Made by a program: the position numbers and the translations under genes
DNA from: a virus
Strand: one strand, 5' to 3'
Virus record (IMG/VR): IMGVR_UViG_3300044692_000046
Coordinates: 1 to 64,000 of that record
Length of the DNA stretch: 64,000 nucleotides
The notes under the pieces: generated by a model
Databases searched by the model: none
Told to the model about the DNA's origin: nothing
What the model saw: the letters and a program-made list of their open reading frames with translations, nothing else
Shown here: in pieces, positions 1,759 through 24,748 of the stretch
Layout: each line of letters begins with the position of its first letter
Position numbering within the stretch: position 1 is the stretch's first letter

Positions 1759-2382
1759 ATGCCCGCACCTGCCAGCACGCCCGAGCCTGAGCTCACCGAG
1801 CTCGGCCGCTACCTCGAAGACGCCCGAGAAACAGCCGGCCTCTCGAAGCGGGCAGCCGCTGGCCGGGCAGGCATCAGCGAAGGACGCTGGCGCCAGATCA
1901 CCCGCGGCTTCCAGCCCGCCGGCGAACATCAGATCCCCGCCAACCCCAAGAAGGACACCGTGGCGCGCATGGCCCGTGCCGTACGCGCCAACGTCCTCGT
2001 TGCCCAGCGACTCGCAGGCTTCGAGGTACCCGACCCCGACCCCGACGTCACGCCAGACGGGAAGTTCGGCAAGTGGTTGGTGGAGAAGCGTCAGATGGCC
2101 GGCTTCGGCACGAGCGCCGACCTGGCCGAGGCCGCGAACCTCGGCGCCGACGAGATCCGCGACTGGGAGGAGGGTCGCGCCCGGCCGGAGATCTGGCAGA
2201 TCACCGCGCTGGCCCGGGTGCTGGACGTCTCAGAGTTCGAGGCCCTGGCGATGGGTGACTACCTTCCTCCGGAGATCGCTGAGACCCTGACATGGATGAC
2301 GGACCCAGCTACACCCCCAGAGAGAGTGGCAGAGGTGCAGCGGTACCTGCGCTTCATGCGCTCCGAGGGCGCGACCGGCTGA
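1759..2382 (+). CDS. Immunity repressor with two tandem XRE HTH domains
   Basis: LGRYLEDARETAGLSKRAAAGRAGISEGRWRQI and FGKWLVEKRQMAGFGTSADLAEAANLGADEIRDWEEG; divergent from cro. Confidence 0.8.
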   Translation: MPAPASTPEPELTELGRYLEDARETAGLSKRAAAGRAGISEGRWRQITRGFQPAGEHQIPANPKKDTVARMARAVRANVLVAQRLAGFEVPDPDPDVTPDGKFGKWLVEKRQMAGFGTSADLAEAANLGADEIRDWEEGRARPEIWQITALARVLDVSEFEALAMGDYLPPEIAETLTWMTDPATPPERVAEVQRYLRFMRSEGATG

Positions 2383-2624: not shown

Positions 2625-3113
2625 TTGTCGGAACCCAGCAACACCAACCCATCAACCCTTGAGCGCAGCGCCCCGGTGATCCTGGGCTGCGGCGCTCTCC
2701 TATGGATCGTGTTCGGCGTGGCGACAGCCGTCACCGTGGCCGACCACGACAATGCGGTGCCACTCAGCCTGGAGATGATGCTGATCGCCTTCGGCAGCAC
2801 CGGCGTTCTCGGCGGACTGCTGCTGTACGGGGTCCGCATCGTCACGGCCAGGGTGCAGGTGGTCAAGGACAACCAGGTTCAGCTCGGCGCGAGGGTGGCG
2901 GCTAACACCACCGCCCTGCACGGCGCCACGGACGCGCTGGATGTCCTACAGAGCAAGGTTGACTCCAGCGCAGGCGCCACCGCAGGCATGGAGCAGGCCG
3001 TCACCGAGCTCGGCAAGTCGTACACCACCACGTTGCATCGCATCGCCGCCAGCAGAATCAACGGCGCGCATCTCGTCGCGGTCGGCGGGCAATCCGGCCG
3101 CGGCGACGGGTAA
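2625..3113 (+). CDS. Membrane protein (2 TM plus coiled coil)
   Basis: Two hydrophobic segments; GGGGAGG RBS before TTG 2625 (track start 2559). Confidence 0.6.
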   Translation: MSEPSNTNPSTLERSAPVILGCGALLWIVFGVATAVTVADHDNAVPLSLEMMLIAFGSTGVLGGLLLYGVRIVTARVQVVKDNQVQLGARVAANTTALHGATDALDVLQSKVDSSAGATAGMEQAVTELGKSYTTTLHRIAASRINGAHLVAVGGQSGRGDG

Positions 3114-3139
3114 CCATCCCCGCTCTCGGCGAGCAGGCA

Positions 3140-3172
3140 GCCCCTACAACCCCGGACCCCGGTTGTGGGGGC
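3140..3172. terminator. Hairpin between convergent genes
   Basis: GCCCCTACAACC...GGTTGTGGGGGC stem. Confidence 0.5.
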
Positions 3173-3188
3173 CGAACTGCATCCAGCG

Positions 3189-4178
3189 CTAAATCCGATC
3201 CCCCAGGTTGAGTTTTCGGTGCGCTTCCCGAGCCCGCTCGGCGGCCACGGAAGCACCGTACCGGCGCACCACCGGCGAGCCCTTCGCCCACCCTCCCTGA
3301 TTCTCCAGGTCCTCCTCCGATATGCCGGCGGCCTTGGCGTGGTGTGCCCAGGTGTGCCGCAGTCGGTGCGGCTGGATCTTCGGGATTCCGGCCTGCTCGC
3401 ACCGGCGCTCCAGCATTATCCCCACCGCGCCGCCGGTCATCCGCCACTCGACCGTTGGCACCGGTCCGGATCGATCAACCCGGGACCGGACCGACAGGAA
3501 CAGCGCCTTGCTCGCGGCGCCCGGGTGCTTGCGCCGGGCCCGCAGGTAGCGCGACAGCGCCAGCGTCGCCTTCGTGCCGGAGATCGCCACGAGCCGCGGC
3601 TTGCGGCCCTTCCCGAGGATGTAGATGTCACTGCGGTTGATGTCGACGCCAGCGGTGTCCGCGCGGACCAACTCCTCGCGCCGCACCCCGGTCGCATCCA
3701 TCAGCCGGATGATCGCTTCGTCGCGGAGGTCCACGAACGTGCGGTTGCTGCAGGTGGCCAGCAGCGCGGCGAGCGCGTCGTCGTAGACGATGGGCTTCGG
3801 CGGCGACGACACGACTGGTATGGGAATCCGATCGGTAGGAAGGATCTGCCCCACCCCGGATCCCGGTTCGTCGCGAAGCCATCGCCAGAACGATTTGAGG
3901 GCCATGAGGCGCCGGTAGCGGGTGCCGGAGCTGCGGCCGATGTCCTTGAGCCAAGCCAGGAAGCCTTCGATGTGTCTGCGCTCCACAAGGGACGGTTCGG
4001 TCACTTTGGAGTCGCCGACCTCGGGATCGTGGAGGTAGTCGAGGAATTGGCGGATGTCGATGAGGTAGGCGACGTGGGTGCCTTGGGACTGGGTACGGTC
4101 GTCGTGCTGGAGGTGGAAGTACCAATCGCGGACCCAGTCGTCCCAGTCGTCGCCGTGCTCGGGGAGGATGACGCGCAC
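3189..4178 (-). CDS. int: Tyrosine recombinase/integrase
   Basis: Catalytic motifs ATGVRREEL, GKGRKPR, HRLRH, GW, RRY; probable GTG start 4178 preceded by TAACCT -10 (leaderless). Confidence 0.92.
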   Translation of the reverse strand: MRVILPEHGDDWDDWVRDWYFHLQHDDRTQSQGTHVAYLIDIRQFLDYLHDPEVGDSKVTEPSLVERRHIEGFLAWLKDIGRSSGTRYRRLMALKSFWRWLRDEPGSGVGQILPTDRIPIPVVSSPPKPIVYDDALAALLATCSNRTFVDLRDEAIIRLMDATGVRREELVRADTAGVDINRSDIYILGKGRKPRLVAISGTKATLALSRYLRARRKHPGAASKALFLSVRSRVDRSGPVPTVEWRMTGGAVGIMLERRCEQAGIPKIQPHRLRHTWAHHAKAAGISEEDLENQGGWAKGSPVVRRYGASVAAERAREAHRKLNLGDRI

Positions 4179-4650
4179 GTGTTCGAGGTTATCGGCACAT
4201 GGAGCGGCGTGCATAGTCCACGATCGGACGACGTGACCGTCTGTGCGGTTGTTGTTGCAGGTGAGCCGCCATATGCGAGACTCAGGTGCAGAGCGCTGCG
4301 ACCCGCGAGAACACCCAGTTCTCCGGCACCTGAGCGGCATCCATCGGGGTCATTCGAGCGTGCGGCGCCAAGCGCCGTTCGGCCAGTTATCGGCACACTA
4401 GTGGATCTCGTTCCGGGGGCCATTTGGCCGGTGCGCTACCGGGGTCTGGGGCAGCACACTCTGGGGAGGCGCCCCTCGACTGGTGCCTTGAGAGAGGAAC
4501 AGCCGAGGGGCGCCCCATTGGATCAACGGAGGCAACTTGCAGCGGTAACGGTCTTGACTGCAAGAATACTTACGGTGATCGATGTCCGGTTGGGACCCGC
4601 TCAGTCTACCCGACTGTGATCACGATCTGTGGCCACAGCCTCTGACCTAG
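4179..4650. other. Probable attP region
   Basis: Non-coding gap next to int with a 12-bp direct repeat GTTATCGGCACA (4188, 4386) and two long hairpins; core not identifiable. Confidence 0.4.
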
Positions 4651-4652
4651 CC

Positions 4653-5048
4653 TCAGAACTCCAGGCGTGTCCACCCCGGGTACGCCGTCTCGGTCCCGTC
4701 CACCGAAACGACGGTCACCGGCACCCCCTCCCCCAGGTCCCACCGGTCCCGTTCGGCCGGGGTGGGCATCCGGGAGTGCACCTCCACCACCGGCCGTACC
4801 CGCACCGGATCGACCTGGGGCTGTTCGCGGACGTAGGCGCCGGACCCTTTGCGTGTCGCCACCAGCCCATCCTGACGCAGGACAGCCAGTGCGTCACGGA
4901 TCGTGTCCCGGCTGACTTCGAAGTCGTGGGCCAGCGTGAACTCGGCCGGCAGCCGCGCGCCCGGTGCCAGTTCGCCGGACAGGATCTGCGCCCGGAGCTG
5001 CTCGGCCACACGCCGGTAGACGGGAAGCTCGGGGCCGCGGTCGGTCAC
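4653..5048 (-). CDS. GntR-family winged-HTH regulator
   Basis: YRRVAEQLRAQILSGELAPGARLPAEFTLAHDFEVSRDTIRDAL...RKGSGAYV. Confidence 0.88.
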   Translation of the reverse strand: MTDRGPELPVYRRVAEQLRAQILSGELAPGARLPAEFTLAHDFEVSRDTIRDALAVLRQDGLVATRKGSGAYVREQPQVDPVRVRPVVEVHSRMPTPAERDRWDLGEGVPVTVVSVDGTETAYPGWTRLEF

Positions 5049-5365: not shown

Positions 5366-6133
5366 TCAACTCACCATCGTCAGGCCACGGCGGGCCAGCC
5401 ACTCCTCCAGCTGACCATGCTCGGCGAGCTGGTCGACGTAGCGGCCAGGCCAGTCGATCGGCTTGCGCTTGTCCTTGCGGAACGCGTCGTAGTAGGCCCA
5501 CGCGGGGTGGACTCCGACCGGGCTCCACCGTCGGCCGTCGGTCTCCAACTGCTCGCCGACGATCGAGCGGAACAGGTGCACGTCCTCCTCGCGCCAGTCC
5601 ACGAACTCCTCCGAGCCGGTGTCAGGTTCGTTGTCCGAGGCTTCGAGGTGATCTTCATTCGTGTTCGCGCCGCCGGAGGGAGCGAAGCGACCGGAGGCGG
5701 GACACTCTAGTTCATCTTCGTTATCGGTTCTTCTTCTCGGTTCTTCTAAAGAAGTGCCTTTACCGCCGGATGGTTCACCGTCGGTGGCTGAGGGACTTAT
5801 GGTGCGACCTGCGGAAACGTCGGAGCCGGGTTCGCGGCGGACGTCGTAGACCTCCTGGACCCACACGAAGCGCCCATCTCGGTCACGGACTCGGCGGCGC
5901 ACGAGGTAGCCGGCGCGTTCCAGCTCGGCGAGAGTTGTACGGATTGCCTTGATGCCTTCGTTGGAGTTGCGGGACGCCGCGATGCGGTCGGCGCTGATCG
6001 CCCAGTCGTCCGGCCGCGACAGCAGTTCGACAAGCAGCCCGGTGGCTCGGTACGACAGCCGGGCGTCGCGGGCAACGTCGTTGCGGAGGATCTGGAAGTC
6101 CCGCTGGGGCTTCGGCGCCCGCTTGATCACCAC
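5366..6133 (-). CDS. HTH replication-initiator-like protein
   Basis: FQILRNDVARDARLSYRATGLLVELLSRPDDW...LAELERAGYL N-terminus typical of phage/plasmid initiators; AT-richer internal tract about 5700-5800. Confidence 0.7.
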   Translation of the reverse strand: MVIKRAPKPQRDFQILRNDVARDARLSYRATGLLVELLSRPDDWAISADRIAASRNSNEGIKAIRTTLAELERAGYLVRRRVRDRDGRFVWVQEVYDVRREPGSDVSAGRTISPSATDGEPSGGKGTSLEEPRRRTDNEDELECPASGRFAPSGGANTNEDHLEASDNEPDTGSEEFVDWREEDVHLFRSIVGEQLETDGRRWSPVGVHPAWAYYDAFRKDKRKPIDWPGRYVDQLAEHGQLEEWLARRGLTMVS

Positions 6134-7131: not shown

Positions 7132-8145
7132 ATGCGGCTCCTGGTCCTCGGCGGTACCCGCTTCGTCGGGCGCGCGATCGCCGGCGCCGCCGTCGGGCGG
7201 GGCTGGCAGGTTACGACCTTCAACCGCGGCCAGGCCGGGCCCGACGTTCGTGGAGTCCAGCCGCTGCGCGGTGACCGAACCGACCAGGACGATCTTCGAC
7301 GGCTTGCTTCTGCGGGCCGTTGGGACGCGGTGGTCGACACCTCCGGCTACGTCCCGGTGAACACCCTGCAGGTCGCTCGAAGCCTCCAGGCGGTCGCAGG
7401 TCAGTACGTGTTCATGTCCACGGTGAGTGCCTACCGGGGATGGCCGATCGAGCCGTTGTCGGAGGCATCTCGGGTGCTGCTCTGCCCTCCCGACGCTGAG
7501 GCCGGCTTCGGTGAGGACACGGAGGATGGCCCCACCCGCTACGGCTATCAGAAGGCCGGCTGTGAGGCGGCCGTCGCGGAGATTTTCGGCCCCGACCGGT
7601 CTGTGATGCTGCGACCCGGCGTGGTGCTCGGGCCGGGCGAGTACGTGGGCCGCCTGCCCTGGTGGTTACACCGCGTGGCGACTGGAGGGCGACTACTCGC
7701 GCCCGGCTACCCGGCACGCACCATCCAGCCTGTCGATGTGCGGGACCTCGCCGACTTCACTGTGCGCACCGTCGAGGACCAGCTCACGGGGGCGTTCAAT
7801 GTGACCGCCCCGATTGGCCGCGAAACGTTCGGTGGGCTGCTGGAGGCATGTGTGCAGGCGACCGGTTCGCACCCCGACGTTGTATGGGTCCCAGACGATG
7901 TGCTGCTGATGCGCGGGGTTCGGCAGTGGTCTGAGATTCCGTTGTGGCGGACGTTTCCCGGCGTGTGGCATGTCGAGTCGACCAGGGCGCAGTCAGCTGG
8001 TCTTCGATGCCGGTCGCTCGCGGACACGGCCCGAGACACCTGGGCGTGGATGCGCGATGGCCAAGTGCACCTCGACGCGGAACGCTCCGGCGAGATCGGG
8101 CTCAGCCCAGAGCGAGAGCAAGCGATCCTAGCGGACGTGGCCTAG
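7132..8145 (+). CDS. NAD-dependent epimerase/dehydratase (atypical SDR)
   Basis: LVLGGTRFVG Rossmann motif, FNRG, DAVVDTSGY, YGYQK (YxxxK). Confidence 0.9.
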   Translation: MRLLVLGGTRFVGRAIAGAAVGRGWQVTTFNRGQAGPDVRGVQPLRGDRTDQDDLRRLASAGRWDAVVDTSGYVPVNTLQVARSLQAVAGQYVFMSTVSAYRGWPIEPLSEASRVLLCPPDAEAGFGEDTEDGPTRYGYQKAGCEAAVAEIFGPDRSVMLRPGVVLGPGEYVGRLPWWLHRVATGGRLLAPGYPARTIQPVDVRDLADFTVRTVEDQLTGAFNVTAPIGRETFGGLLEACVQATGSHPDVVWVPDDVLLMRGVRQWSEIPLWRTFPGVWHVESTRAQSAGLRCRSLADTARDTWAWMRDGQVHLDAERSGEIGLSPEREQAILADVA

Positions 8146-9392
8146 CGAAGCGCGGTCGCCTCGGTCAGCCACTCCCCCACCTGGCCCGCCAGTTCGGCGG
8201 CCTGATCGTCGGTCCGCCATCGAGGGCCAGCCAGCACTTGCCGGACCCGCTCCATGCGTCCGGCGAGCGACACGTTGCGCAGCGGCATCGGTAGGTCCAA
8301 CACGGGACGAAGCGCGTCGGCCCCTCCGTCGCGGTTACCGCTGATCAGTCGCGCTGCGGCGAGATCGATGCGTGCTCCGTTGACCTGGGAGAACGGCTGC
8401 CGCGCGCCTGGCGCTGCGGTCAGCTCGTCGAGGGCCTGCTGTGCGTGCGTCTCCGCTTCGCTGCCGCCGCCCAGGTCGAGCCACGCAGCGGCGGCGCACG
8501 CTTCGGCGCGGGCCTGCCCGAACGCGAACTCGCCGCCCGTTTCCTCGCTGAGCGCGTCCCGATTCAGGTTGCTGTCCTCGCGGTCGGCAACCGCGCTCAC
8601 GAGGTCCTGAGTCACACCGGAGGCGTCGCCGAGGAGCGCGTGGGAACGGGCGGCGATGTAGCGAAGCCGGAACCGCGGCGCGCCGGCCGGGGCAAGTCGG
8701 AGGCCCTTCTCGTAGTAGGTGAGGGCAAGATCGGGTTCGTCGCGCCAGTTGGCGAGGGTGGCGCGCAATCCCAGCGTCCACGCCTGCAGCGACTGGTGCC
8801 CGGCGATACCGGCGTAGGAGGCGGCCGACTGGGCTAGTCGGGCGGACGCGTCCCAGCGGCGCAGGTCGAACGCTGTGCTGGCCATCAGCGCGGTGGCCTG
8901 GCCGATGATGACGTACAGGTCGGAGAGCAGGCCCGGTCGGCGGGTGTGATCCACCAACTCTCGGGCATTGCCGCGGATCTTGCGCGCCGCGGTGAAGACG
9001 TCGACCGCAGGGCGGCTGTGCACCCGTGCCAGAGCCTGCGTCTCCGACCACAGGTCCGCCACCGACGTCGGGTCGAGTTCGGTCGCGAGGATCATGTCGT
9101 CCGCGTCGGCCTCGTCGGCGGCTGCAAGCACGGCGTCTTCCTGCGTGTCCCAGCGTCCGGGCATGGCGCGCAGGTCAACGAAGCGGCGGCGAGCTTCCTC
9201 GCCGGCCTCCGATAGTGCCTGGGTGAGAGTGCGCTGCGCGTTGGCCGGCAGGATCTCTTCCCGCCAGCGCCGCCATGCGGCAACGGTGCGGACCGACATC
9301 TTGATCCGGTCGGCGAACCGTTCGTTTGTCAAGCCGGTCGCTTCTTGCAGCGCGCACAGGTCGTGGCGGGTCCATCGGATCACGTCGCTCAT
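8142..9392 (-). CDS. XRE-HTH regulator with long TPR-like helical domain
   Basis: ATG 9392 with GGAG RBS; LQEATGLTNERFADRIKMSVRTVAAW HTH followed by Ala/Leu-rich helical repeats. Confidence 0.8.
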   Translation of the reverse strand: MSDVIRWTRHDLCALQEATGLTNERFADRIKMSVRTVAAWRRWREEILPANAQRTLTQALSEAGEEARRRFVDLRAMPGRWDTQEDAVLAAADEADADDMILATELDPTSVADLWSETQALARVHSRPAVDVFTAARKIRGNARELVDHTRRPGLLSDLYVIIGQATALMASTAFDLRRWDASARLAQSAASYAGIAGHQSLQAWTLGLRATLANWRDEPDLALTYYEKGLRLAPAGAPRFRLRYIAARSHALLGDASGVTQDLVSAVADREDSNLNRDALSEETGGEFAFGQARAEACAAAAWLDLGGGSEAETHAQQALDELTAAPGARQPFSQVNGARIDLAAARLISGNRDGGADALRPVLDLPMPLRNVSLAGRMERVRQVLAGPRWRTDDQAAELAGQVGEWLTEATALR

Positions 9393-9410
9393 TGCGTGAC
9401 TCCTAGCGAA

Positions 9411-9449
9411 GCTGCACTTACATGCATCGTCCTGCACTGCTACTGCATG
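9411..9449. promoter_or_regulatory. Helically phased TGCA repeats upstream of XRE-TPR gene
   Basis: TGCA at 9413, 9423, 9433, 9444. Confidence 0.45.
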
Positions 9450-9600
9450 GTCTAGGCCGCCGGCGCCCGAGACTATGGACAGGTACCGATGTGCCGGCTG
9501 TGACGGTTGTGGCGGTGAATACCGATGGAGTTGATGACCCCGGCTGAGCTTGCGGCAATCCGCGAGCGCCTCGCCTGGCTGGAGGCGGACATCGACAGCC

Positions 9601-9957
9601 TCACTCAGCGCGTGGATGACCTGGCCGGTCTCGCTCAAGCTCAGCGACCCGTCGATCGAGAGTCCGCACTCGTTCGCTGAGCTGGTCAACCTTATCGATG
9701 ATCTCCTGATACGGGCCGGAGGCTGTCGCACTCTCTCCCGGTGCACCGATGACCTTAGTTCCCTTGCCCTGGTGTCGGTCGACGACCCGCTCCAGTTCCA
9801 GTTCGCTGAGCGCCATCCTGATCACGGTGACGGAGGAGTCGTAGCGACGCTGCAACTCCACCATGGGCGGCAGCCACTCTCCCACCGGGAACTCGCCGCG
9901 GGCGATACGTCGGCGCAGGTCGGCGGCCACCTTCTTGTAGGCGGGTTCCACAGGCAT
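9601..9957 (-). CDS. GntR-family repressor (KorSA/TraR-like) with C-terminal coiled coil
   Basis: YKKVAADLRRRIARGEFPVGEWLP...HQGKGT; divergent from the transfer operon as in actinomycete conjugative elements. Confidence 0.85.
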   Translation of the reverse strand: MPVEPAYKKVAADLRRRIARGEFPVGEWLPPMVELQRRYDSSVTVIRMALSELELERVVDRHQGKGTKVIGAPGESATASGPYQEIIDKVDQLSERVRTLDRRVAELERDRPGHPRAE

Positions 9958-10038
9958 TGAACGTCCTCACTTTGAACACTGTGCCTACATAGTGCCGTAG
10001 GTGTGACCTGCGGCAAAGCATGTGACTGGCATGAAGCC

Positions 10039-10072
10039 TTGACGGATTGTGCCTCACAGTGCACTATGAGGC
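10039..10072 (+). promoter_or_regulatory. Transfer-operon promoter (TTGACG-17-CACTAT) overlapped by palindromic operator
   Basis: GCCTCACAGTGCACTATGAGGC 10051-10072; related copy GTGCCTACATAGTGC at 9981. Confidence 0.65.
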
Positions 10073-10100
10073 TGTTGTGTTCGTGGAGACAGGAGGGGCC

Positions 10101-10418
10101 GTGGGGAGCATCGCGCCGGTCGTGTCGGGTGAGACGCCTGACCAGCACGCCACGGGCCCGAACTACTGCACCGTCAAGGCACTCCAGACCGAACTCGGCG
10201 GTCCCGACTGCATCTCCCGGATGACCATCTACCGGCTCATCAGGGACGGCGAACTCGACGCGATTCAGGTCAGCCCGCAGAAGATCCTCATCCTGCGCAG
10301 CTCGATCACCGCATGGCTGGAGCGTTCCCGCGTCTCCACCGAGACCAGCGCGACCCCGACTCCCGGCATCCTCCCGCCGGAGTCGGGGTCGCGCTCTGCT
10401 GGCGAGGAAGTCGCCTGA
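10101..10418 (+). CDS. Excisionase-like HTH DNA-binding protein
   Basis: ISRMTIYRLIRDGELDAIQV...ILRSSITAWL; AGGAGG RBS. Confidence 0.8.
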   Translation: MGSIAPVVSGETPDQHATGPNYCTVKALQTELGGPDCISRMTIYRLIRDGELDAIQVSPQKILILRSSITAWLERSRVSTETSATPTPGILPPESGSRSAGEEVA

Positions 10419-10419
10419 G

Positions 10420-10611
10420 ATGTCCGCCCACGTGATGCGCCGCCGCGAGCACCCGCCAGTCACGCCCTCAGGCGAGCTGGTCCCGGATGCACTGCTCGGC
10501 GCGCTGCGGTTGGCGGAGACAGTGGTCGGCCACCGGCTGACCGGAGAAACGAACGACCCGGCCGACGCTGGCACGTCGAACCGGGCCCCTGAGTCCCTGG
10601 AGGTCTCGTGA
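10420..10611 (+). CDS. Hypothetical protein
   Basis: Tightly packed in operon. Confidence 0.45.
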   Translation: MSAHVMRRREHPPVTPSGELVPDALLGALRLAETVVGHRLTGETNDPADAGTSNRAPESLEVS

Positions 10612-10883
10612 TGCACGCTACCGCAACCCTCGACCGCGACGCCAACCGAGCCGACCGGATCCGGCACGAGCTGGACCTCAAGACGCCGAGCCTGGCCAAG
10701 ACCGGCCTGGTCACCGCCGCGGAGCTGGACGAGGCGGCGGGCAGCGTCGGAGCCGACCTGTTCCTGCGGATCCTGACCGCCGCGAACCTCGGCGGCCTGG
10801 TCGACGGGGCGCGGGCGGAGGCGCGGGAGCGCGGCGACCGGACCTCGACCTACCTCGACCGGCTGGCGCACCTGACCGGCTGA
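10608..10883 (+). CDS. Hypothetical protein
   Basis: GGAGG RBS, GC3 bias. Confidence 0.65.
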   Translation: MMHATATLDRDANRADRIRHELDLKTPSLAKTGLVTAAELDEAAGSVGADLFLRILTAANLGGLVDGARAEARERGDRTSTYLDRLAHLTG

Positions 10884-10975
10884 CCCACAGACCGCCTGCG
10901 GGGCGGGGCGCCCCCACCAACGCTCCGCCCCGCAGGCACTCCACACGAACCGATCTTGAAAGCGGGATATCTGCA

Positions 10976-11221
10976 ATGTCTGGCTTGGTCAATGGCTTCA
11001 GCAAGACCGACACGACCGTCAACGCCGCCCTGGAGTGGATCGAGGGCGATCTCCGGGAGGCGCTGGTGACGGCGGTGGGTCGCATCAACTCGGCGCTGGA
11101 GGCGCCGTCCAACGACAACGAGGTTCTGCACTCGCACGCGGCGGACATCCACAGCCTGATCTCCACCATCGACCGGAACAAGCGGCGCCGCGCCGAGATC
11201 GCCCGAGGCGAGGACTTCTAG
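10976..11221 (+). CDS. Hypothetical helical protein
   Basis: ORF after intergenic hairpin, GC3 bias. Confidence 0.6.
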   Translation: MSGLVNGFSKTDTTVNAALEWIEGDLREALVTAVGRINSALEAPSNDNEVLHSHAADIHSLISTIDRNKRRRAEIARGEDF

Positions 11222-11279
11222 ACCAGCTCCATCGGCTGACTGACCCGACCATCCACGAGACCTGGGGAGACGGAGAACC

Positions 11280-12584
11280 GTGGACCTGCTACTCGACCCG
11301 ACCGCCCGGCGCTGGGCTGCGCTCATCGGCGCCTCCGCGGTGCTGCTCGTGGGCGTGTTCCTGCTGGTCTGGCTCGCGGGTTCCCGCTACGGCAAGCGCA
11401 AGGCCGCCGGCACCACCAAGGACGACACCAGCCGGGCTCGCACCAAGGACCGGCTGCTGTTCGCTGCGGCGCTCCTCGCGGGTCTGACCGTCTACGCCGG
11501 TTTCGCCGTCGGCTCCTACCAGGGTCTGACCGGGTTCGCCCGAGACTTCATCCACTGGTCGGACTGGCGGCAGAACATCGTGCCCGTCACCCTCGACGGC
11601 GGCACCGCCGCGTTCGGCTTCCTGGCGTTCCGGTCGGTCCAGCTGAAGAAGTCGGCGCTGCTGTGCTACATCGTGGTGCTCGGCTCGACCGGCGCGTCCG
11701 CGGTCTTCAACTTCACCGAAGGCGCCGAACATGCCTGGCAGGCCGGCGCGTTCCTCGCCTACCTGGCCTGGGCGGGCATGGCCATGGGCCATGTGTTCCT
11801 GGAGCAGTTCAAGAAGTTCGCCGGGCTCGGCCGGTACGTCAAGTACGGCGTCCGCTGGCTGACCTCCCCCCACTCGACGGCCTGCGCCGCGCTGGCGTGG
11901 GTGAACTACCCGCCCGAGGACGGCACCGAGGCGACCGTCCGGAACGGCCTGGCGCACCTCTCCGCGGTCCGTGCCCGCAAGCACTCCGAGGCTACGGGCC
12001 GGCGGGCCGCGCGTGCCATGACAGGTGGCATCACCCTGCGGCCGTGGGCGCGCCTCACCGCCGTTGCGGAGACCCTCGCGACGGTTACCGCCGAGCTCTC
12101 CGATAGCCGCGCGGAGAGGGCCTCCGAGAGCGCCCGGAGAGCCGAGGCGGAGACCCGCGTGGAGACCTTGGAGGCGAACCTCGCGGAGATGGCGGAGACC
12201 GTCCGAGCCCTCCGATCGGAGATGACCTCCGGAGACCCCTCCGGAGAGGGGGCGGAGAACCCTGCGGAGACCCCCCTCCGGCTGAGGCGGAGCACCAGCA
12301 AGAGGACCCTGGAGAGGCCCCTCCGAGCGGTGCCCTCCGGCGCCACGGTCTCCGACGAAGAGGCTGTTCAGCGGCTCCTCCGGGCGGAGGTCTCCGACGA
12401 CGACAAGCAGCCCGGCTACGCCTGGTCGAAGAACAAGGCGGTGCAGGTCTCCGGCGTGGGCTGGGGCCGCATCAACGACATCCTCCGGCTGCTCGCGGAG
12501 ACCCGCGCCAGCGGCCGGTCAGCGAACCCCTCCGGAGGGGACCGGAGCACCGGCTCCGACGACTCTGAGGAGCGTGCCGGATGA
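11280..12584 (+). CDS. DUF2637/Spd-like membrane spreading protein
   Basis: Multiple TMs with SYQGLTGFA...VPVTLDG motif, coiled coil, C-terminal HTH-like segment. Confidence 0.7.
   Translation: MDLLLDPTARRWAALIGASAVLLVGVFLLVWLAGSRYGKRKAAGTTKDDTSRARTKDRLLFAAALLAGLTVYAGFAVGSYQGLTGFARDFIHWSDWRQNIVPVTLDGGTAAFGFLAFRSVQLKKSALLCYIVVLGSTGASAVFNFTEGAEHAWQAGAFLAYLAWAGMAMGHVFLEQFKKFAGLGRYVKYGVRWLTSPHSTACAALAWVNYPPEDGTEATVRNGLAHLSAVRARKHSEATGRRAARAMTGGITLRPWARLTAVAETLATVTAELSDSRAERASESARRAEAETRVETLEANLAEMAETVRALRSEMTSGDPSGEGAENPAETPLRLRRSTSKRTLERPLRAVPSGATVSDEEAVQRLLRAEVSDDDKQPGYAWSKNKAVQVSGVGWGRINDILRLLAETRASGRSANPSGGDRSTGSDDSEERAG
12060..12560. repeat. Dense CGGAGA(CCC) repeat tract, candidate clt/TraB recognition sequences
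   Basis: At least 12 CGGAGA (5 as CGGAGACCC) plus many inverted CTCCG copies in 500 bp. Confidence 0.6.
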
Positions 12585-12844
12585 GCCCCCGGAAGAACCG
12601 CCAGACCGACCGGCAGCGCGCGCACGAGGAGCGTGCCACCGCGTTCTGGGCGGCGAAGCTCAACGCCGCTCGAACGCCTGATGATCGCGCCCGAGTGATC
12701 TTCGATGAGACGCGCGCCCGGATCGACAACCACCGGGTGGCCGAGGTTCGTGACCGGGCGTGGCTGGCACTGGAGAAGCACGCCTGCGCCGGGCGTGAGC
12801 TTGTGACGCGGATCCTCACCGAGAGGCTCGGTGACACCGCGTGA
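12581..12844 (+). CDS. Hypothetical protein
   Basis: ATGA overlap, GAGGAG RBS. Confidence 0.65.
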   Translation: MSPRKNRQTDRQRAHEERATAFWAAKLNAARTPDDRARVIFDETRARIDNHRVAEVRDRAWLALEKHACAGRELVTRILTERLGDTA

Positions 12845-12983
12845 AGTTGACTGCCAACTTGACAGGGCCTGTTGACAGCCCGATCGCGGATCCACGCGAT
12901 CACAGACGCGCGCTGGCGCGCGCGCGAGTCCCGATTGTACCCATCCATCACGCACAGCGACCACAGAAGGGAGGCGAGAAGCC

Positions 12984-13430
12984 ATGGAAGGACTGATCAC
13001 CCAGTGGGGGGTGCCGGCTGGTGTCGGCGTCATCTGCCTGATCGCAGCGGTCCTGCTGTTCACGCTCGGCAAGAAGCAGTGGCCGTGGCTGATCCTCGTG
13101 CTGATCATCGGAGCGTCCGACGCGCTCATGTCGACCCCCGTCGGAACCTACATCCACTCGGCCGTGACCTGGGCCAACACTGAGACCGGGTCCCTGATCG
13201 GGAGGTTCACGGGCGTGGTGGTCGGCGGGCTCGTGTCGATCACTGTCCTCGGCATCTTGATCATCAAGGTGATCAGGAAGGAGCGGGACAACTGGACCTA
13301 CACGGCCGGGGCACTCGCTCCGCCGTCTGTGGTGCTGATCCCGGGAGTGATTGGGACGGTGCTGACGTTCGCCATCACCCTGCCGATGTGGTTGGTGTCG
13401 CAGGTCGTCAGCCTGGCGCTGGGGTGGTGA
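12984..13430 (+). CDS. Multi-pass membrane protein of transfer region
   Basis: Several hydrophobic helices; GGAGG RBS. Confidence 0.75.
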   Translation: MEGLITQWGVPAGVGVICLIAAVLLFTLGKKQWPWLILVLIIGASDALMSTPVGTYIHSAVTWANTETGSLIGRFTGVVVGGLVSITVLGILIIKVIRKERDNWTYTAGALAPPSVVLIPGVIGTVLTFAITLPMWLVSQVVSLALGW

Positions 13431-13436
13431 GCTGAC

Positions 13437-14411
13437 ATGCCGATCCTGTTGATCGCGGTGCTCGTCGCCGGTGCGTGGTGGACGAAGAACACGCTGGAAG
13501 AGGTGCCGTTCGCGATGCGCGGCAAGACCTCCCCGCGGCGCCAGCTCAAGATGGAGCGCTTCAAGGCCAAGGCCGGCAACTCGGAGCGCCGCTACGGCTT
13601 CGCCCGCTACGTCGCCGACCTGTGGGCGTCGTGCTGGAAGGAGGCACTCCAGGCGCGGATGAACACCACCGACCACCGGGTGAACGCCCGCACCCAGAAG
13701 GCCATCCGCAAGCACGAGCGCCGCATCGACCGCCGGGACCGCAGGTGGGCCCGTCGTGACGATCGGCGCCAGCAGCGTCAGGTCCGCCGCGCCGAACGTC
13801 GGCTACCGCCCCCGGCCCCCGAGGAGCCTCGCGAGCCGTGCGCCGGGTGCGGCAAGTCGGGTCACGACCTGCCCTACTGCGAGAAGCCCGCCGACTCCAC
13901 CCCAGCCGACAGCGGGCCCGACGAGATGTCCGACCGCAAGTGCGGCTGGTGTGGAGGACCCGCCCACTCGTCCGCCGACTGCCCCGTCTACACGGGCAAG
14001 TCCGAACCGCAACCGAAGGAGAACACCGTGTCCGCATCCCCCGAGACCAGCACCGTCAGCAGCCTGCGGGCCGCCATGGAGGCGAAGGTGACCGAGGCGA
14101 CCGCCGAGCTGGAGGACGCCCGCGCCAACGCGAACCGCGCCGCCGGGGAGCTGGCCCGCGCCGACCAGATGGTGGCGAGCCTGCGTTCCCAGAAGGTGCC
14201 GGAGCAGACCGTCGCGCGCGTCCAGCAGCTGCAGGAGAACGCCGCCGCCGCGAAGAAGACCGCCGACGCGCGGGCCGCGCTCGCCGACTCGGACGTGGCG
14301 CTCGCGAAGGCCGCGCTGGCCGACGTGGCCGCGCACGAGCACGTCCAGGACGCCAGCACTGCGGCCGGCGGTGTCGCCAATGCGAGCTTCTACGAGCAGA
14401 GCAACAGCTGA
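13437..14411 (+). CDS. TraA-like protein with N-terminal TM, two CCHC zinc knuckles and C-terminal coiled coil
   Basis: Directly upstream of traB; CX2CX4HX4C twice; in-frame GTG 14028 with AAGGAG RBS; ends SFYEQSNS. Confidence 0.65.
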   Translation: MPILLIAVLVAGAWWTKNTLEEVPFAMRGKTSPRRQLKMERFKAKAGNSERRYGFARYVADLWASCWKEALQARMNTTDHRVNARTQKAIRKHERRIDRRDRRWARRDDRRQQRQVRRAERRLPPPAPEEPREPCAGCGKSGHDLPYCEKPADSTPADSGPDEMSDRKCGWCGGPAHSSADCPVYTGKSEPQPKENTVSASPETSTVSSLRAAMEAKVTEATAELEDARANANRAAGELARADQMVASLRSQKVPEQTVARVQQLQENAAAAKKTADARAALADSDVALAKAALADVAAHEHVQDASTAAGGVANASFYEQSNS

Positions 14412-14471
14412 CCCGGCGGGCGGTGCGGCCCACCACGAGCCGCACCGCCCCCAGAACGAAGGGATGAGATC

Positions 14472-16496
14472 GTGAGCCGCACCGCAACGCCAGCCCCACC
14501 GAGGCTCCCGTTCGGTGGCGGGCGACGCGTCAACAAGGCCGTGGACCGTATGGTCCGCGACAACCCGAACCTGCTGCGACAGGTCCGGTTGACCCGAGGC
14601 CAGCGATTCCGCCGCTGGCTCGGGCGCAGCGCATGGAAGGCTACCCACAAGTCCGCCCGGCACGGCTGGAAGAAGCGTCGCACCCTGGCCCCGTCGTACG
14701 TGGGGTTCGCGGTGATCCTGCTCGGCGAACTCGCCCACGTGTTGCCCACCGGCTGGCTGACCGCCGCGTGGCTGGGCTTGCCCGCCGCCGCGATTTGCTG
14801 GTGGTGGGTGGGTGGCACGGCATGGAAGCTCACCCGCAAGAAGCGGGCCCGCAAGACCCACCGCGGCTGGTGGCTTGCCGGGATCGGCGTGGCGTGGGCG
14901 CTGTTTCTGCTGGTGGCGCTGCTCAGCTGGGCGCCGCCGATGCCGTTCCCGGTCATCGTGGCAACCACCACGTTCCAGGTGCGGTGGCTGTGGCACCGCC
15001 GAGTCCGGCCGACCGCGGCGAAGAAGAACGACCCAGACGTGGCCACCTGGAAGGCGATCGACGGGTTCGCGAAGACCAGCATCGAGTTCACCGACCTACC
15101 GGCCGACCGCGGCCGGTCCGCGCTGGCCGACCTGTCCGACTCCAACCTCACCGCCGACGACGTGGTGGCGAAGCTCAAGGCGATCACGAAGGCGTACCGC
15201 AAGACGGCCGGCGCGGTGGTCGTGGAGCGCACCCCCGAGGAGTACGAGCACCTGGTCAAAGTCATGATCCTCAAGCGCAACCCCACGCAGGAGATCACCG
15301 AGTACGACGAGTCGTGGGTGCAGTTGGAGGACGGCTGCACGCCGTTCAGCACCTACCCGGACGCGGCGCGAGCGTGGCTGCGCATCTGGGAGCCCCGCTC
15401 GGGCTGCGTGCACGAGCTGTTCTCCGGCGACCCGCGCACCGGTAAGTCCCGGGGCATGGTCACCGCGATGACCCAGTCGGTGATGACCGGCCTGGTGTTC
15501 CCGATCGTCGGCGACCCGCAGCAGGGCCAGTCGATGCCCGGCTGGGCCGGCGCCGACGGCAAGGCGCCTATCACCGCCCTGGACGTCGAGTCGATCCACG
15601 ACGTGCTGCGCGCCCTGCGCACCGCCATGTACCGCCGGTCGAACTACTTGTCGAAGCGGCTGTGGACCGACGAGGACAACGACACGCACCGCGGCATGGA
15701 CTTCTTCGACCCGACCGTCGTCCCGGAACTGCCGATCCTGGAGATGACGATCGACGAGGCGCACCGGCTGCTGGAGTTCGACCACATCGCCGACCTGGTG
15801 GAGGAGATCGCGCTGATGGCCGGCAAGACCGGCATCCGGCTGCGGCTGGCCACCCAGTACCCGTCGATGGACAACCTCGGCAACCGGATGACGATCCGCA
15901 ACTCGCTGATCGGTGGGAACACGATCGCGTACCGCATCTCCACGGCCGTCGCGCAGGGCATGATCCTGCCGGCGTGGCTTCCGGGCCCGCACACCATCCC
16001 AAAGCGTCTCCCGTCCGGTGAGCACACGAAGGGGATGCTGGTGCTGGACTCGTCGGCGCCGAACTCGTCGCGGGGGACGTTCTCGCGCACGGTGTGGACG
16101 CGGCGGGAGCACCACTGGGCGGGGATCGCTGCGAAGCGCATCCCGAAGCTGCACGATCTGGATATGGAGGTGTTCGGCTCGGACTTCTCCGCCTGGCGGC
16201 AGAAGACACAGCTGGCGGTGGCGGCCCAGCCGTCGCAGACCGGCAGCGAGAACGGCGTGCAGGACCCGTCGGCGCCACTGGACGACCGGATTGCCGCCTA
16301 CCTGGCCACCGTGGACACCGGACGGACCGGCGTCATCGCCGACCACGTCGGTAAGGACATGGCGACCGTGAGCAAGACCCTCGCTCGAATGGAAGGCAAG
16401 CGGCGGGTCGACCTGATCGAGCGGGGTGTCTGGGCGCTCGTTCGTAGCGAATCCGATGAGCAGAACCACGCGACCGAGACAGCAGGTGCCGCATGA
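14472..16496 (+). CDS. traB: TraB-type FtsK/SpoIIIE conjugative DNA translocase
   Basis: N-terminal TMs, Walker A GDPRTGKS, Walker B MTIDEAH, LATQ motif, C-terminal winged helix. Confidence 0.85.
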   Translation: MSRTATPAPPRLPFGGGRRVNKAVDRMVRDNPNLLRQVRLTRGQRFRRWLGRSAWKATHKSARHGWKKRRTLAPSYVGFAVILLGELAHVLPTGWLTAAWLGLPAAAICWWWVGGTAWKLTRKKRARKTHRGWWLAGIGVAWALFLLVALLSWAPPMPFPVIVATTTFQVRWLWHRRVRPTAAKKNDPDVATWKAIDGFAKTSIEFTDLPADRGRSALADLSDSNLTADDVVAKLKAITKAYRKTAGAVVVERTPEEYEHLVKVMILKRNPTQEITEYDESWVQLEDGCTPFSTYPDAARAWLRIWEPRSGCVHELFSGDPRTGKSRGMVTAMTQSVMTGLVFPIVGDPQQGQSMPGWAGADGKAPITALDVESIHDVLRALRTAMYRRSNYLSKRLWTDEDNDTHRGMDFFDPTVVPELPILEMTIDEAHRLLEFDHIADLVEEIALMAGKTGIRLRLATQYPSMDNLGNRMTIRNSLIGGNTIAYRISTAVAQGMILPAWLPGPHTIPKRLPSGEHTKGMLVLDSSAPNSSRGTFSRTVWTRREHHWAGIAAKRIPKLHDLDMEVFGSDFSAWRQKTQLAVAAQPSQTGSENGVQDPSAPLDDRIAAYLATVDTGRTGVIADHVGKDMATVSKTLARMEGKRRVDLIERGVWALVRSESDEQNHATETAGAA

Positions 16497-16855
16497 CCGA
16501 CCACACGCTTCCCCGCCCGGCCGTCCTGCCGGAGGTCATCGCGCCTGGTGGCGCCACGGTGGCCCGCCGCGCCGCCGCCCCGCCCGCGCCGCGCGTCATC
16601 GACGTCCAGCCCACCAGCGTTCAGCAGGTGCGTCCCCGCAGCCGCAAGCGGCTCGCTCTGGCGATAGCCGCACCGTCCACGCTCGCCCTGCTGGCAAGCT
16701 CCGGCTGGGTCCTGGCCCGCGTCGACGCCGCCGTCCACCTGTTCATGTGGGTCGGCATCGTCGCGGCCGGGGCAGTCGTGGTGGCGCTGCTGATCCTGGC
16801 CGCGCTGTCGCGCCGCAAGTGCCCCGGCCTGCACTGCGCCGGCTGCAAGGACTGA
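16493..16855 (+). CDS. Spd-like 2-TM protein with C-terminal CPGLHCAGC motif
   Basis: ATGA overlap with traB; Pro-rich N-terminus, two TMs. Confidence 0.65.
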   Translation: MTDHTLPRPAVLPEVIAPGGATVARRAAAPPAPRVIDVQPTSVQQVRPRSRKRLALAIAAPSTLALLASSGWVLARVDAAVHLFMWVGIVAAGAVVVALLILAALSRRKCPGLHCAGCKD

Positions 16856-16860
16856 CCGCC

Positions 16861-17475
16861 ATGATGGCCCCGACCCATATGGCCGCCTCTGCTGCGGGCG
16901 CTTTGGGTGTGCTGGCCCTCGCCGCGCACGAGGGCGTCCACCTGACCATCTGGCACGCTGCGATCGGCGTAGGGGTGGCCACTGTCTCGGCCCTGATCCC
17001 GGACGCGGATCACCCGTCGTCGCGGATCTCCCGCGCCGCCGGCATCGCCACGATCGGCCTGTCGCACCTCGTGCGGTTCGTCTCGGCGCGGGTGTACGAC
17101 GTGACCCGCACCGAACGGGACCGGCCGCGCGGCGGCAAGCACCGCGGCCTGACCCACACTCCGATCGGCGCGGTCACCTTCGGGCTGTTCGTCGCGGGCG
17201 CGCTGCTACTGGCCGGGCAGTGGTGGACGCCGGCCGCCGCCTGGGCGTGGCTCGGCGCGCCGGTCGGGTTCGGCTGCCTGGCGCACATCGCCGCGGACTT
17301 CTTGACCCGCGAAGGGGTGCCGCTGCTGTGGCCGTTGAAGGTCAGCGGCAAACGCTGGCGCCGCTTCCACGTTCCGCTGGTGGCGATCAGCACCGACCAC
17401 TTCGCGGAGCGCTTCCTGTACCTGCCGGCGTTCGTGTTCGCTGCCGGCTGGTGCGCTTACCTCACCCTCACCTGA
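16861..17475 (+). CDS. Membrane metal-dependent hydrolase (YdjM-like)
   Basis: PTH, LIPDADHP, HRGLTH, HIAADFLT..GVPLLWP motifs. Confidence 0.85.
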   Translation: MMAPTHMAASAAGALGVLALAAHEGVHLTIWHAAIGVGVATVSALIPDADHPSSRISRAAGIATIGLSHLVRFVSARVYDVTRTERDRPRGGKHRGLTHTPIGAVTFGLFVAGALLLAGQWWTPAAAWAWLGAPVGFGCLAHIAADFLTREGVPLLWPLKVSGKRWRRFHVPLVAISTDHFAERFLYLPAFVFAAGWCAYLTLT

Positions 17476-21661: not shown

Positions 21662-21961
21662 ATGAGCGAGCAGAACCGGGTACCGTGGTCGGACGCGATG
21701 GCCCGCGCCATCGACGATTCGGTCGCTCTTCCGGAGGTCCGAGAGCGGCTGCGGCTGGCCCGCAAGGATGCCGCCCAGGGAGCGGGCGGCCTGGACGACC
21801 TGTACGCCGGGGCGATCGACATCCTCAACCGGTGGGAGGAGGCGCACTCGATCCGCGCCACCGAGCCGTGGCGGGCCGACATCATCCTCAACGACTACCG
21901 GCCGGTCCGCCCGTACGCCGTGAATCTGGGGTCCTGGATTCAGGCAGCCGAGGAGGGCTGA
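21662..21961 (+). CDS. Hypothetical protein
   Basis: AGGAG RBS. Confidence 0.65.
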   Translation: MSEQNRVPWSDAMARAIDDSVALPEVRERLRLARKDAAQGAGGLDDLYAGAIDILNRWEEAHSIRATEPWRADIILNDYRPVRPYAVNLGSWIQAAEEG

Positions 21962-21962
21962 G

Positions 21963-22214
21963 GTGGCTTCTCTGACTCCCGCCCAGCGGCGTGTACTGGA
22001 AGCCGCCCGCGATGGCCGACTCGGCTACATGCAGATCGGCAACGACTACTACCTGACCGATCCCGACAGCGACGAGCTGCACAGCGTGAGCCCGGTCGCC
22101 CGCCGCCAGTTCGCAGCCGGGCTGATCGAACGCGTCGAGTACCACATGCACGGGCGGTTCGTCATGGGCCTGACCCCCGCTGGCCGTTCCGAGTTGGGCA
22201 TCGAGGAGGACTGA
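21963..22214 (+). CDS. Hypothetical winged-helix-like protein
   Basis: LTPAQRRVL...AGLIE...LTPAGR. Confidence 0.65.
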   Translation: MASLTPAQRRVLEAARDGRLGYMQIGNDYYLTDPDSDELHSVSPVARRQFAAGLIERVEYHMHGRFVMGLTPAGRSELGIEED

Positions 22215-24196: not shown

Positions 24197-24277
24197 AGCT
24201 TCCGGGTCGGCTCGTGGACGCAATCCAGGGCCGGGCCGGTGGCTGCCAGATCGGCGCCAGGAAGGACAGAGACCGAG

Positions 24278-24748
24278 ATGAGCGAGACGAACACGGTGCC
24301 GGCGAACAGGGTGCTGCTGGCGGTGCTGGAGAACAAGCCAGCGGACGGCGTGCTGGCCGTGGCCCGGCTGATGCGCGAGCGGGCGGAGGCGGCCACGCAG
24401 GGCACCTGGGGGCTGGGGTTCGGCACGGACATCGTGTCGGGCATCACCCGGACCGGCCGGGCGTCGTACAGCTGCGACCACCACGTGGCGCGGGTGGTCG
24501 AGGATGACGACCGCTTCTCCGGGGACAACGTTCACAACGAGGCGGATTCCGAGGACGACGCCGTGCACATCGCCACCATGGCCAACCCGGCGGTGGCGCT
24601 GGCACTGGCCGACTGGCTGGAGGGCTCAGCGAACCAGATCCGCCACCTCGGGCCGGCGGCCGTATCGCAGCTCCACGACAGGTACGGGCCGGGCGCGGCG
24701 GTCGCGGTGGCCCGCGCCTACCTGACGGCCGACGTCGAGGAGGACTGA
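24278..24748 (+). CDS. Ead/Ea22-like protein
   Basis: AEAATQGTW...DAVHIATMANPAVALALADWL. Confidence 0.6.
   Translation: MSETNTVPANRVLLAVLENKPADGVLAVARLMRERAEAATQGTWGLGFGTDIVSGITRTGRASYSCDHHVARVVEDDDRFSGDNVHNEADSEDDAVHIATMANPAVALALADWLEGSANQIRHLGPAAVSQLHDRYGPGAAVAVARAYLTADVEED

Follow-up and report, generated by a model that had tools for sequence, protein, structure and literature searches.

A temperate actinomycete phage genome with a predicted TraB-type DNA transfer module between its integrase and late genes

The DNA analyzed here (the window) is a stretch of 64,000 nucleotides, positions 1-64,000 of the IMG/VR virus record IMGVR_UViG_3300044692_000046, and covers about two thirds of that 95,148-bp genome. 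An earlier note on the window had proposed a tailed temperate phage with its own TraB-type conjugation operon. Our analysis of the whole record indicated that this temperate phage probably carries a TraB transfer module of the type known from plasmids and from the integrative and conjugative elements of actinomycetes (AICEs), in an accessory region between the integrase and immunity genes and the end of the late (lysis) operon, which would give the phage a capsid-free route. The module consists of a GntR repressor, a Xis-like helix-turn-helix (HTH) protein, four membrane proteins, a 324-aa partner and a TraB-like pump, and a replication-initiator-like gene lies nearby.

The TraB-like gene (14472-16496, plus strand) encodes a predicted double-stranded DNA (dsDNA) translocase of 674 aa. 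As judged from its sequence and its structure model, this protein has the architecture of TraB: a translocase of FtsK fold that is anchored in the membrane and ends in a winged helix at the C-terminus. The Walker A motif GDPRTGKS, the Walker B motif IDEA and the motif ATQYPS were conserved in an alignment of six homologs, and the family profile of the protein matched FtsK structures in the PDB (E=2.7e-9). In the AlphaFold2 model the core had a pLDDT (the model's confidence score) of 80-90, and a Foldseek search with this model put the FtsK motor, at 4e-13, and TcpA, a coupling protein of conjugation, at 1e-12, ahead of EccC and HerA. Transmembrane (TM) prediction and the model placed an N-terminal membrane anchor in hydrophobic helices at residues ~73-175, and the winged helix occupied residues 603-656 (H-E-H-H-E-E; pLDDT ~80), with weak profile matches to winged-helix domains. 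The protein also matched an FtsK/SpoIIIE-like PHROG (1.6e-6). Alignment by hhalign to pZL12.71c, a protein encoded by pZL12, a plasmid-phage from Streptomyces, gave a probability of 92% (E=5e-7), a relation reached by profile comparison only. NCBIfam gave no match to the protein, tblastn with its sequence against 50,697 phage records gave none at 1e-5, and a single-sequence search of genome contigs also gave none. The best cultured homolog, with 31% identity over 90% of the protein, is encoded on a 203-kb plasmid of Micromonospora zamorensis, in a cassette near ParA and ParB whose proteins of 92, 151, 364, 682 and 116 aa mirror the 87, 148, 324, 674 and 120 aa of the phage. A tRNA-Pro(GGG) was called by ARAGORN antisense within traB (15944-16032, minus strand); Rfam found no tRNA in the window, and the call is probably a false positive.

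The TraB-like gene belongs to a plus-strand run of open reading frames (ORFs) with high GC content at third codon positions (GC3), located at 10047-17475 and divergent from a gene for a 118-aa GntR regulator in a TraR/KorA-like position (9601-9957, minus strand; Pfam PF00392, 1e-15). The divergent control region between them is about 140 bp long (9958-10100). It contains operator-like sites of the form GTGCCT-N4-6-GTGC at 9981 and 10050, and these were the only two matches to the motif in the window, against 0.68 expected; a third, similar site was present at 10168 on the minus strand. An inverted-repeat search found a 22-bp palindrome (10051-10072), with which a -35-like hexamer, TTGACG, overlaps. 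The first operon gene probably starts at a GTG that lies in frame at 10101 and is preceded by a strong ribosome-binding site (AGGAGG). A divergent GntR (TraR/KorA) gene and operator-like palindromes are thus present as in a plasmid kil-kor pair; repression itself is putative.

The first ORF of the operon (10047-10418, plus strand) encodes an HTH_17 protein (Pfam HTH_17, 1.3e-7) that is either Xis-like or a regulator; the match to PHROG_66, 'excisionase and transcriptional regulator', had an E-value of 4.4e-4, and the Xis-like assignment is weak. It is followed by three small ORFs of 63, 91 and 81 aa (10420-11221, plus strand; GC3 0.84-0.95; no Pfam match) and by a 434-aa protein (11280-12584, plus strand) in a SpdB2/DUF2637-like position. 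The N-terminal half of the 434-aa protein contains at least three TM segments, and its C-terminal half gave coiled-coil matches. Next are an 87-aa ORF (12581-12844, plus strand; GC3 0.83), which has a 92-aa positional analog in the M. zamorensis plasmid cassette, and a 148-aa protein with four predicted TM helices (12984-13430, plus strand), a Spd-like conserved partner upstream of TraB. In eight IMG/VR loci, a homolog of the 148-aa protein was encoded upstream of TraB at a distance of ~1.5 kb; identity was 36% in locus L001 and 28% in the M. zamorensis plasmid. The 324-aa cassette protein (13437-14411, plus strand), called TraA-like in the earlier note, had no match in Pfam, NCBIfam or PHROG; 36% identity over 89 aa was found in L001, and its positional analogs elsewhere measure 364 aa and 396 aa. 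Downstream of the TraB-like gene are a 120-aa protein with two predicted TM helices (16493-16855, plus strand; 116-aa positional analog in the M. zamorensis plasmid) and a YdjM-family membrane metal-hydrolase (~16861-17475, plus strand; Pfam YdjM 5.4e-23, PHROG hydrolase 3.3e-23).

The operon described in the earlier note was therefore recovered in its outline, with the divergent GntR gene, a first ORF of excisionase type (HTH_17) and a TraB-like motor. Its last gene had been called Spd-like, which was incorrect, as this is the YdjM hydrolase; no operon protein matched a Spd family. The label 'DUF2637-like' for the 434-aa protein is weakly supported: a tblastn match to a DUF2637 protein on a Streptomyces plasmid (E=5e-4) and positional analogs annotated or scored as DUF2637 in PhiNon1 and pAmyja1 speak for it, but Pfam gave no match.

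A candidate clt was located at 12067-12503. The sequence CGGAGACC is present there in six exact copies and three inverted copies (GGTCTCCG), together with further copies that differ by one mismatch. This was the densest 8-mer cluster of the whole 95-kb circle, and the copies lie in several reading frames. When the region was shuffled synonymously, 8 of 2000 shuffles reached six copies of CGGAGACC (p ~0.004).

The TraB proteins of the Streptomyces plasmids pSVH1, pSN22 and pIJ101 are membrane-anchored, FtsK-like hexameric dsDNA pumps with a C-terminal DNA-recognition domain, and Thoma et al. described a TraB-TraR (GntR) kil-kor pair, 8-bp clt repeats and small membrane Spd partners (PMC4447253). 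The phage module resembles the tra regions of these plasmids in the architecture of the pump, the divergent GntR gene and the small membrane partners. It differs from them in being carried by a phage, in the lack of a match to PF01580 and to Spd families, and in that its clt is only a candidate. By analogy with these plasmids, GntR in the lysogen would bind the palindromic sites of the divergent control region and keep a toxic pump silent, as in the kil-kor pair. Upon derepression, the winged helix of TraB would bind the circular phage DNA at a repeat array, for which the CGGAGACC cluster at 12.07-12.5 kb is the best candidate, and TraB would pump dsDNA through a membrane hexamer into a neighboring hypha. 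The small membrane proteins might then spread the DNA across cross-walls. The outcome would be a capsid-free route besides infection.

The genome that carries the module belongs to a temperate siphophage, and the host of this phage is a mycelial actinomycete of high GC content (filamentous, soil). About 140 genes were called on the circle by GC3. An integrase, a repressor and a virion module were found in one genome, as in integrating temperate tailed phages, and the virion gene set, comprising the large terminase (TerL), portal, major capsid, tape measure, tail and lysin genes, was complete. The late module lies on the minus strand at 30.3-55.7 kb and includes a GH25 endolysin (30301-31308; Pfam 4.5e-8), LamG/CBM tail-tip proteins, a tape measure protein (39277-42525; Pfam PhageMin_Tail 7.4e-28), the major capsid protein (47254-48663; Pfam SU10_MCP 3.4e-5; 45-51% identity to relatives), the portal protein (52061-53674; Pfam Phage_portal 1.5e-24) and TerL (53662-55239; Pfam Terminase_6N/Terminase_3), which was 61% identical to that of pAmyja1 and 56-73% identical to those of 64 IMG/VR loci. 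A cI-like repressor candidate with two HTH domains (1759-2382, plus strand; Pfam HTH_31 2e-15 and HTH_3 2.6e-7, with a weak NCBIfam match to a phage RstR-type repressor) adjoins the leftward early operon. The tyrosine integrase Int1 (383 aa; 3189-4340, minus strand; Pfam Phage_integrase 1.8e-20, with a SAM-like N-domain) lies beside this immunity region. The block with the tra operon is thus placed, as the earlier note had stated, between the phage integrase and an intact head-tail-lysis region.

The data supported a single closed circular phage genome rather than two tandem elements. The earlier note had proposed a check of circularity, and the first 127 bases of the record recurred exactly at its end, which gives a closed assembly with a circle of ~95,021 bp; IMG/VR classes the record as having direct terminal repeats, with a CheckV completeness of 100%. 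The GC content was 63-72% along the whole record. The tetranucleotide distance of the block was within one standard deviation of the rest, and its codon usage correlated with that of the early genes (r=0.96). Circular closure and homogeneous composition also speak against a window made of two tandem elements or a misassembly, which the earlier note had named as grounds to give up its proposal. TerL had 64 relatives in IMG/VR, and 95 kb is a normal size for the lineage, because its complete members measure 86-103 kb.

A phage with a TraB cassette belongs to a known kind, for which pZL12 and PhiNon1 are precedents. The Streptomyces plasmid-phage pZL12, or phage ZL12, was reportedly described by Zhong et al. 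in 2010 (J Bacteriol 192:3747; cited in PMC3583192, PMC4487206 and PMC7157519). It resembles the present phage in being a circular tailed-phage genome of ~90 kb (GQ919031.1), in which the GntR gene pZL12.80 is divergent from an operon beside the late genes that contains the membrane protein 73c, 72c and the FtsK/SpoIIIE-like 71c, the remote TraB homolog found by hhalign. Conjugal transfer of pZL12 reportedly depends on a major tra gene together with two of its neighbors (as cited in PMC3583192). The two TraB proteins share only ~19% identity, and the virion genes are unrelated except for a weak TerS-like match. In contrast to the present phage, which has an integrase beside its immunity region and in which no partition genes were found, pZL12 is kept as a plasmid, and its relative pSLE1 has ParA and ParB.

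For PhiNon1, a plasmid-phage of Nonomuraea gerenzanensis, integration at an attB in tRNA-Val has been published, as has a circular form at ~17 copies (PMC5431353). Like the present phage, it (NZ_LT559120.1) contains a gene for a DUF2637 protein, small genes, and genes of 150 aa, 396 aa and 654 aa, the last of them TraB-like, which converge on lysis and tail genes. The TraB proteins were 29.5% identical and the tail-tip proteins 27-39% identical. The two phages differ in size (59 kb vs 95 kb), and an attB is known for PhiNon1 only. The PhiNon1 publication makes no mention of TraB or transfer.

The closest cultured relative of the phage was pAmyja1 (NZ_CP008954.1), a 92.5-kb circular plasmid of Amycolatopsis japonica DSM 44213, in which the whole virion module was syntenic with 35-61% identity. 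Next to its lysin gene, a GntR gene is divergent from a DUF2637-like 417-aa gene and a gene for a 737-aa P-loop protein that resembles TraB in its motifs (Walker A, IIDEA, LATQ). Homology of the 737-aa protein to TraB could not be demonstrated: the similarity was not significant, and motif spacing alone agreed. pAmyja1 also differs from the phage in having a single recombinase, of the Int2 type described below. Although its annotation is simply that of a plasmid, with the type 'non-mobilizable', pAmyja1 contains a full set of virion genes; no mention of it was found in the literature searched. Stand-alone contigs of Amycolatopsis kentuckyensis (93.6 kb) and Catenulispora pinisilvae (95.8 kb) carried the same TerL lineage. 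pAmyja1 and these two contigs are probably unrecognized phage-plasmids.

The distribution of TraB-like genes was analyzed among the relatives, since the earlier note had proposed a search for related phages that retain traB. Such relatives were found. A match to the TraB profile was present in 8 of the 29 larger TerL-related IMG/VR records, including the complete records G052 and G060, and isolates of Embleya and Dactylosporangium had a TraB-like gene and TerL together on one contig; PhiNon1 and pZL12 showed the same layout as the present phage. In G060 and G052 a GntR homolog was divergent from the TraB-like gene, which lies ~5 kb from the terminase genes, a position unlike that in this phage. 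The TraB-like gene was located just upstream of the packaging genes in many relatives, and the integrases of the TerL relatives were far from TraB or absent. Named genomes with this TerL lineage belonged to Streptomyces, Kitasatospora, Embleya, Catenulispora, Amycolatopsis and Dactylosporangium, where some copies were stand-alone contigs of 93-96 kb and others lay within large contigs.

Relatives of TraB were present in 36 IMG/VR records of diverse lineages, of which 18 had a PF04860 portal, including five complete records with terminal repeats. The closest TraB relative (L001/G001) was 38% identical, and the 148-aa and 324-aa partners were conserved with it. G001 is itself a temperate phage with a tail; its HK97 capsid is unrelated, but its topology is the same, an integrase followed by a tra operon that converges on the late operon. 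In a quick maximum-likelihood tree (IQ-TREE), in which several rows were long-branched, the TraB of this phage grouped with L001 and the plasmid copy, and the copies of the TerL relatives fell at no fewer than three (at least three) separate positions. Because the tree scatters the TraB copies of the TerL relatives, repeated exchange of the cassette is suggested, with the caveat of long branches. The combination of phage and TraB is therefore recurrent and has an experimental precedent in pZL12; the rarity attributed to it in the earlier note was overstated.

Several results weigh against a TraB-type transfer module in this phage. PF01580 (Pfam FtsK_SpoIIIE) gave no match to the TraB-like protein at E<=0.01, nor at E<=10 in a six-frame search of the circle. 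A match to PF01580 is a criterion in AICE surveys. The term 'FtsK-type TraB' of the earlier note thus holds for the fold, the motifs, the membrane anchor and the winged helix, but not for this Pfam family. As to clt, 7% of the synonymous shuffles yielded at least five copies of CGGAGACC; the candidate lies in a region that codes for a coiled coil, where GCG-GAG-ACC encodes the recurring tripeptide AET, and the array is only partly beyond expectation because this AET-rich coiled coil supplies copies. Neither ParA (AAA_31) nor ParB_N was found on the circle by profile searches, so that a stable plasmid state is not evident. Integration, too, is deduced, because attP was not found, and with the weak Xis-like assignment the use of one integrase and excisionase for both routes, as proposed in the earlier note, is conjectural. 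Finally, the TraB of this phage fell in the tree with the copy of a plasmid and that of an unrelated phage instead of with those of its TerL relatives, so that the cassette was acquired horizontally and could be recent cargo.

We put forward, tentatively, that the cassette is functional. An integrating temperate siphophage without a partition system would then move as naked dsDNA between hyphae, by TraB transfer and spread, besides infection, and 'conjugative temperate phages' would form a polyphyletic class, widespread among mycelial Actinomycetota, that arose as TraB cassettes were repeatedly swapped between plasmids and phages. With a working pump the phage would have two routes of transmission, and virion receptors alone would no longer set its host range and spread; the prophage could enter neighbors that lack the receptor or are phage-resistant, and could mobilize chromosomal DNA. 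Plasmids with TraB mobilize chromosomal DNA. The comparative result is the more useful one: several unrelated lineages of temperate actinophages commonly carry TraB-like cassettes, and most of the interest lies in how common and exchangeable the cassette is among them. Because cultured carriers exist (PhiNon1, pAmyja1, and the strains Embleya sp. NPDC005971 and Dactylosporangium sp. CA-139066), integrating phages are now open to tests of what was first shown for pZL12.

Among the alternatives, the one that survives best, although we regard it as unlikely, is that the TraB-like pump serves the phage within one mycelium, where it might move the DNA of the prophage or of the replicating phage across hyphal cross-walls or into spores in place of partition, or might exclude incoming DNA. 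The absence of ParA and ParB from the search results, the mycelial genera that host the lineage, and the position of the gene just upstream of the packaging genes in many relatives are in line with such a role. SpdB2 homologs are present in actinophages, where they were proposed to aid the spreading of phage DNA (PMC4447253). However, the closest cultured homolog of the pump is in a plasmid cassette, and the kil-kor-type arrangement of the GntR gene is typical of transfer genes. In plasmids, moreover, spread and transfer use the same TraB, so that a role within the mycelium is a sub-case of transfer more than an exclusive rival to it.

It is improbable that the block at 3.1-17.5 kb is an autonomous AICE that was inserted into the phage and hitch-hikes in its capsid, with a second recombinase, Int2, as the phage's own. 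In its gene set the block is AICE-like, containing Int1, the replication-initiator-like protein, two GntR genes, the Xis-like gene and TraB, and its size of ~14 kb is also AICE-like; pSAM2, SLP1 and pMEA300 likewise cluster a TraB-type gene with GntR regulators, a replication gene and an integrase (PMC2440964, PMC3218068). A second tyrosine recombinase is present on the circle, and TraB was closer to the plasmid copy and to that of an unrelated phage than to the copies of the TerL relatives. However, AICEs are discrete elements bounded by att repeats, usually at a tRNA gene, and no such boundaries were found here. No direct repeats beyond chance were detected in the circle or around the block, the longest being 13 bp against up to 17 bp in the null, which bears out the earlier note's 'no visible boundary repeats', and within 1-10.1 kb a scan with Rfam by E-value detected no attP core that resembles a tRNA. 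When Int1 and its flanks were compared by BLAST with 401 actinomycete genomes, in search of attP and attB, the matches were confined to the region of the integrase catalytic motif and to short GC-rich stretches. A recurrent stretch at 3063-3130 was rejected as an att candidate, as it was not at tRNA genes in six host loci.

Other features of the block also argue against an inserted AICE and for a module that is part of the phage. The block is embedded in a 95-kb virion-encoding genome and its composition was indistinguishable from the rest of the circle. Int1 lies beside the cI-like gene, where a phage integrase is expected, and we read it as the integrase of the phage. Int2 (65769-66854, plus strand, beyond the window) is more Xer-like than Int1; it matched the XerD model with 169 bits and was 41% identical to a recombinase of the M. 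zamorensis plasmid. It is paired with an endonuclease VII gene in a plus-strand island (65769-67478) within minus-strand operons, which fits a multimer resolvase, and the island is probably a multimer-resolution cassette. The statement of the earlier note that there is no second integrase holds inside the window, but this Xer-like tyrosine recombinase is encoded at 65.8 kb of the circle. Of the AICE set of Int, Rep and Tra, Int and Tra were present, and the only Rep was an HTH_36, phage-initiator-like protein (5366-6133, minus strand), which belongs to none of the RepSA, RepAM and Prim-Pol types; a search for Prim-Pol gave no match. This replication-initiator-like protein has an N-terminal winged HTH and matched replication initiation/DnaD-like PHROGs (E 1e-17 to 1e-19) and Pfam HTH_36 (8e-5), and it was 37% identical over 65 aa to a pAmyja1 protein encoded near the GntR module of that plasmid. 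The earlier note was right that there is no RepSA-type Rep, but a replication-initiator-like gene adjoins Int1. As candidates for plasmid replication and maintenance functions the circle has this gene and the Xer-like resolvase; ParA and ParB_N gave no match. Analogous modules occupied the same position in PhiNon1, pAmyja1, pZL12 and G001, and in the relatives TraB was found without a neighboring integrase.

That the contig is an assembly chimera of a plasmid or AICE and a phage from one metagenome is very hard to credit: the assembly is a short-read metagenomic one, but it closes cleanly into a circle, is homogeneous in composition, has no repeats where a false join could form, and shares its architecture with closed replicons of cultured strains (pZL12, PhiNon1, pAmyja1).

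Strong GC-rich hairpins were present on either side of the Int1 gene, at 3141-3172, where the hairpin separates a convergent 184-aa ORF from the 3' end of int, and at 4468-4514, where it separates the first GntR gene from the start of int. Because these hairpins flank the gene, Int1 looks like its own transcription unit. The first GntR-family regulator is a protein of 131 aa (4653-5048, minus strand; Pfam GntR 2.2e-20). Its homologs were encoded ~2 kb from the TraB-like gene in the IMG/VR records G060 and G052, and its pZL12.80 homolog was 39% identical.

Two host-like cargo genes lie between the integrase and the tra operon. One (7132-8145, plus strand) encodes a host-like NAD-dependent epimerase/dehydratase (Pfam PF01370, 5.9e-11), and the other (8142-9746, minus strand) an NsdA-like regulator with tetratricopeptide repeats, which scored just under the cut-off of NCBIfam NF053720 (1.1e-20) and matched a PHROG transcriptional regulator (1.2e-8). 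As the long ORF of the NsdA-like gene runs into the GntR gene, its start is uncertain. NsdA of Streptomyces negatively regulates both sporulation and the production of antibiotics. The presence of these two genes inside the block contradicts the earlier statement that it holds no host genes.

Downstream of the tra operon is an array of small plus-strand genes at 17.8-26.7 kb. An Ead/Ea22-like phage early protein was encoded at 24239-24748, and no TM helices were predicted in the ORFs checked within the array; for both reasons it looks phage-type and not Spd-type. Near-DNA searches of phages and plasmids gave nothing useful. A 344-bp stretch of the window (21723-22066) showed 81% DNA identity to the M. 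zamorensis plasmid (NZ_CP107937.1, 77.7 kb). Since the closest cultured TraB cassette is on this same plasmid, the match may point to a host range or gene pool in common (Micromonosporaceae).

The phage early region lies beyond the window, on the minus strand at 67-95 kb, and encodes RecT, a YqaJ exonuclease, a DnaC/IstB-like loader, two DNA methylases, WhiB, DUF5131, an HNH protein and a ParB/DndB-like protein. Just upstream of the loader gene, a gene-poor gap contains a 55-bp direct repeat with 84% identity (80441-80495 and 80633-80687), which could represent origin iterons or a repeat-domain gene.

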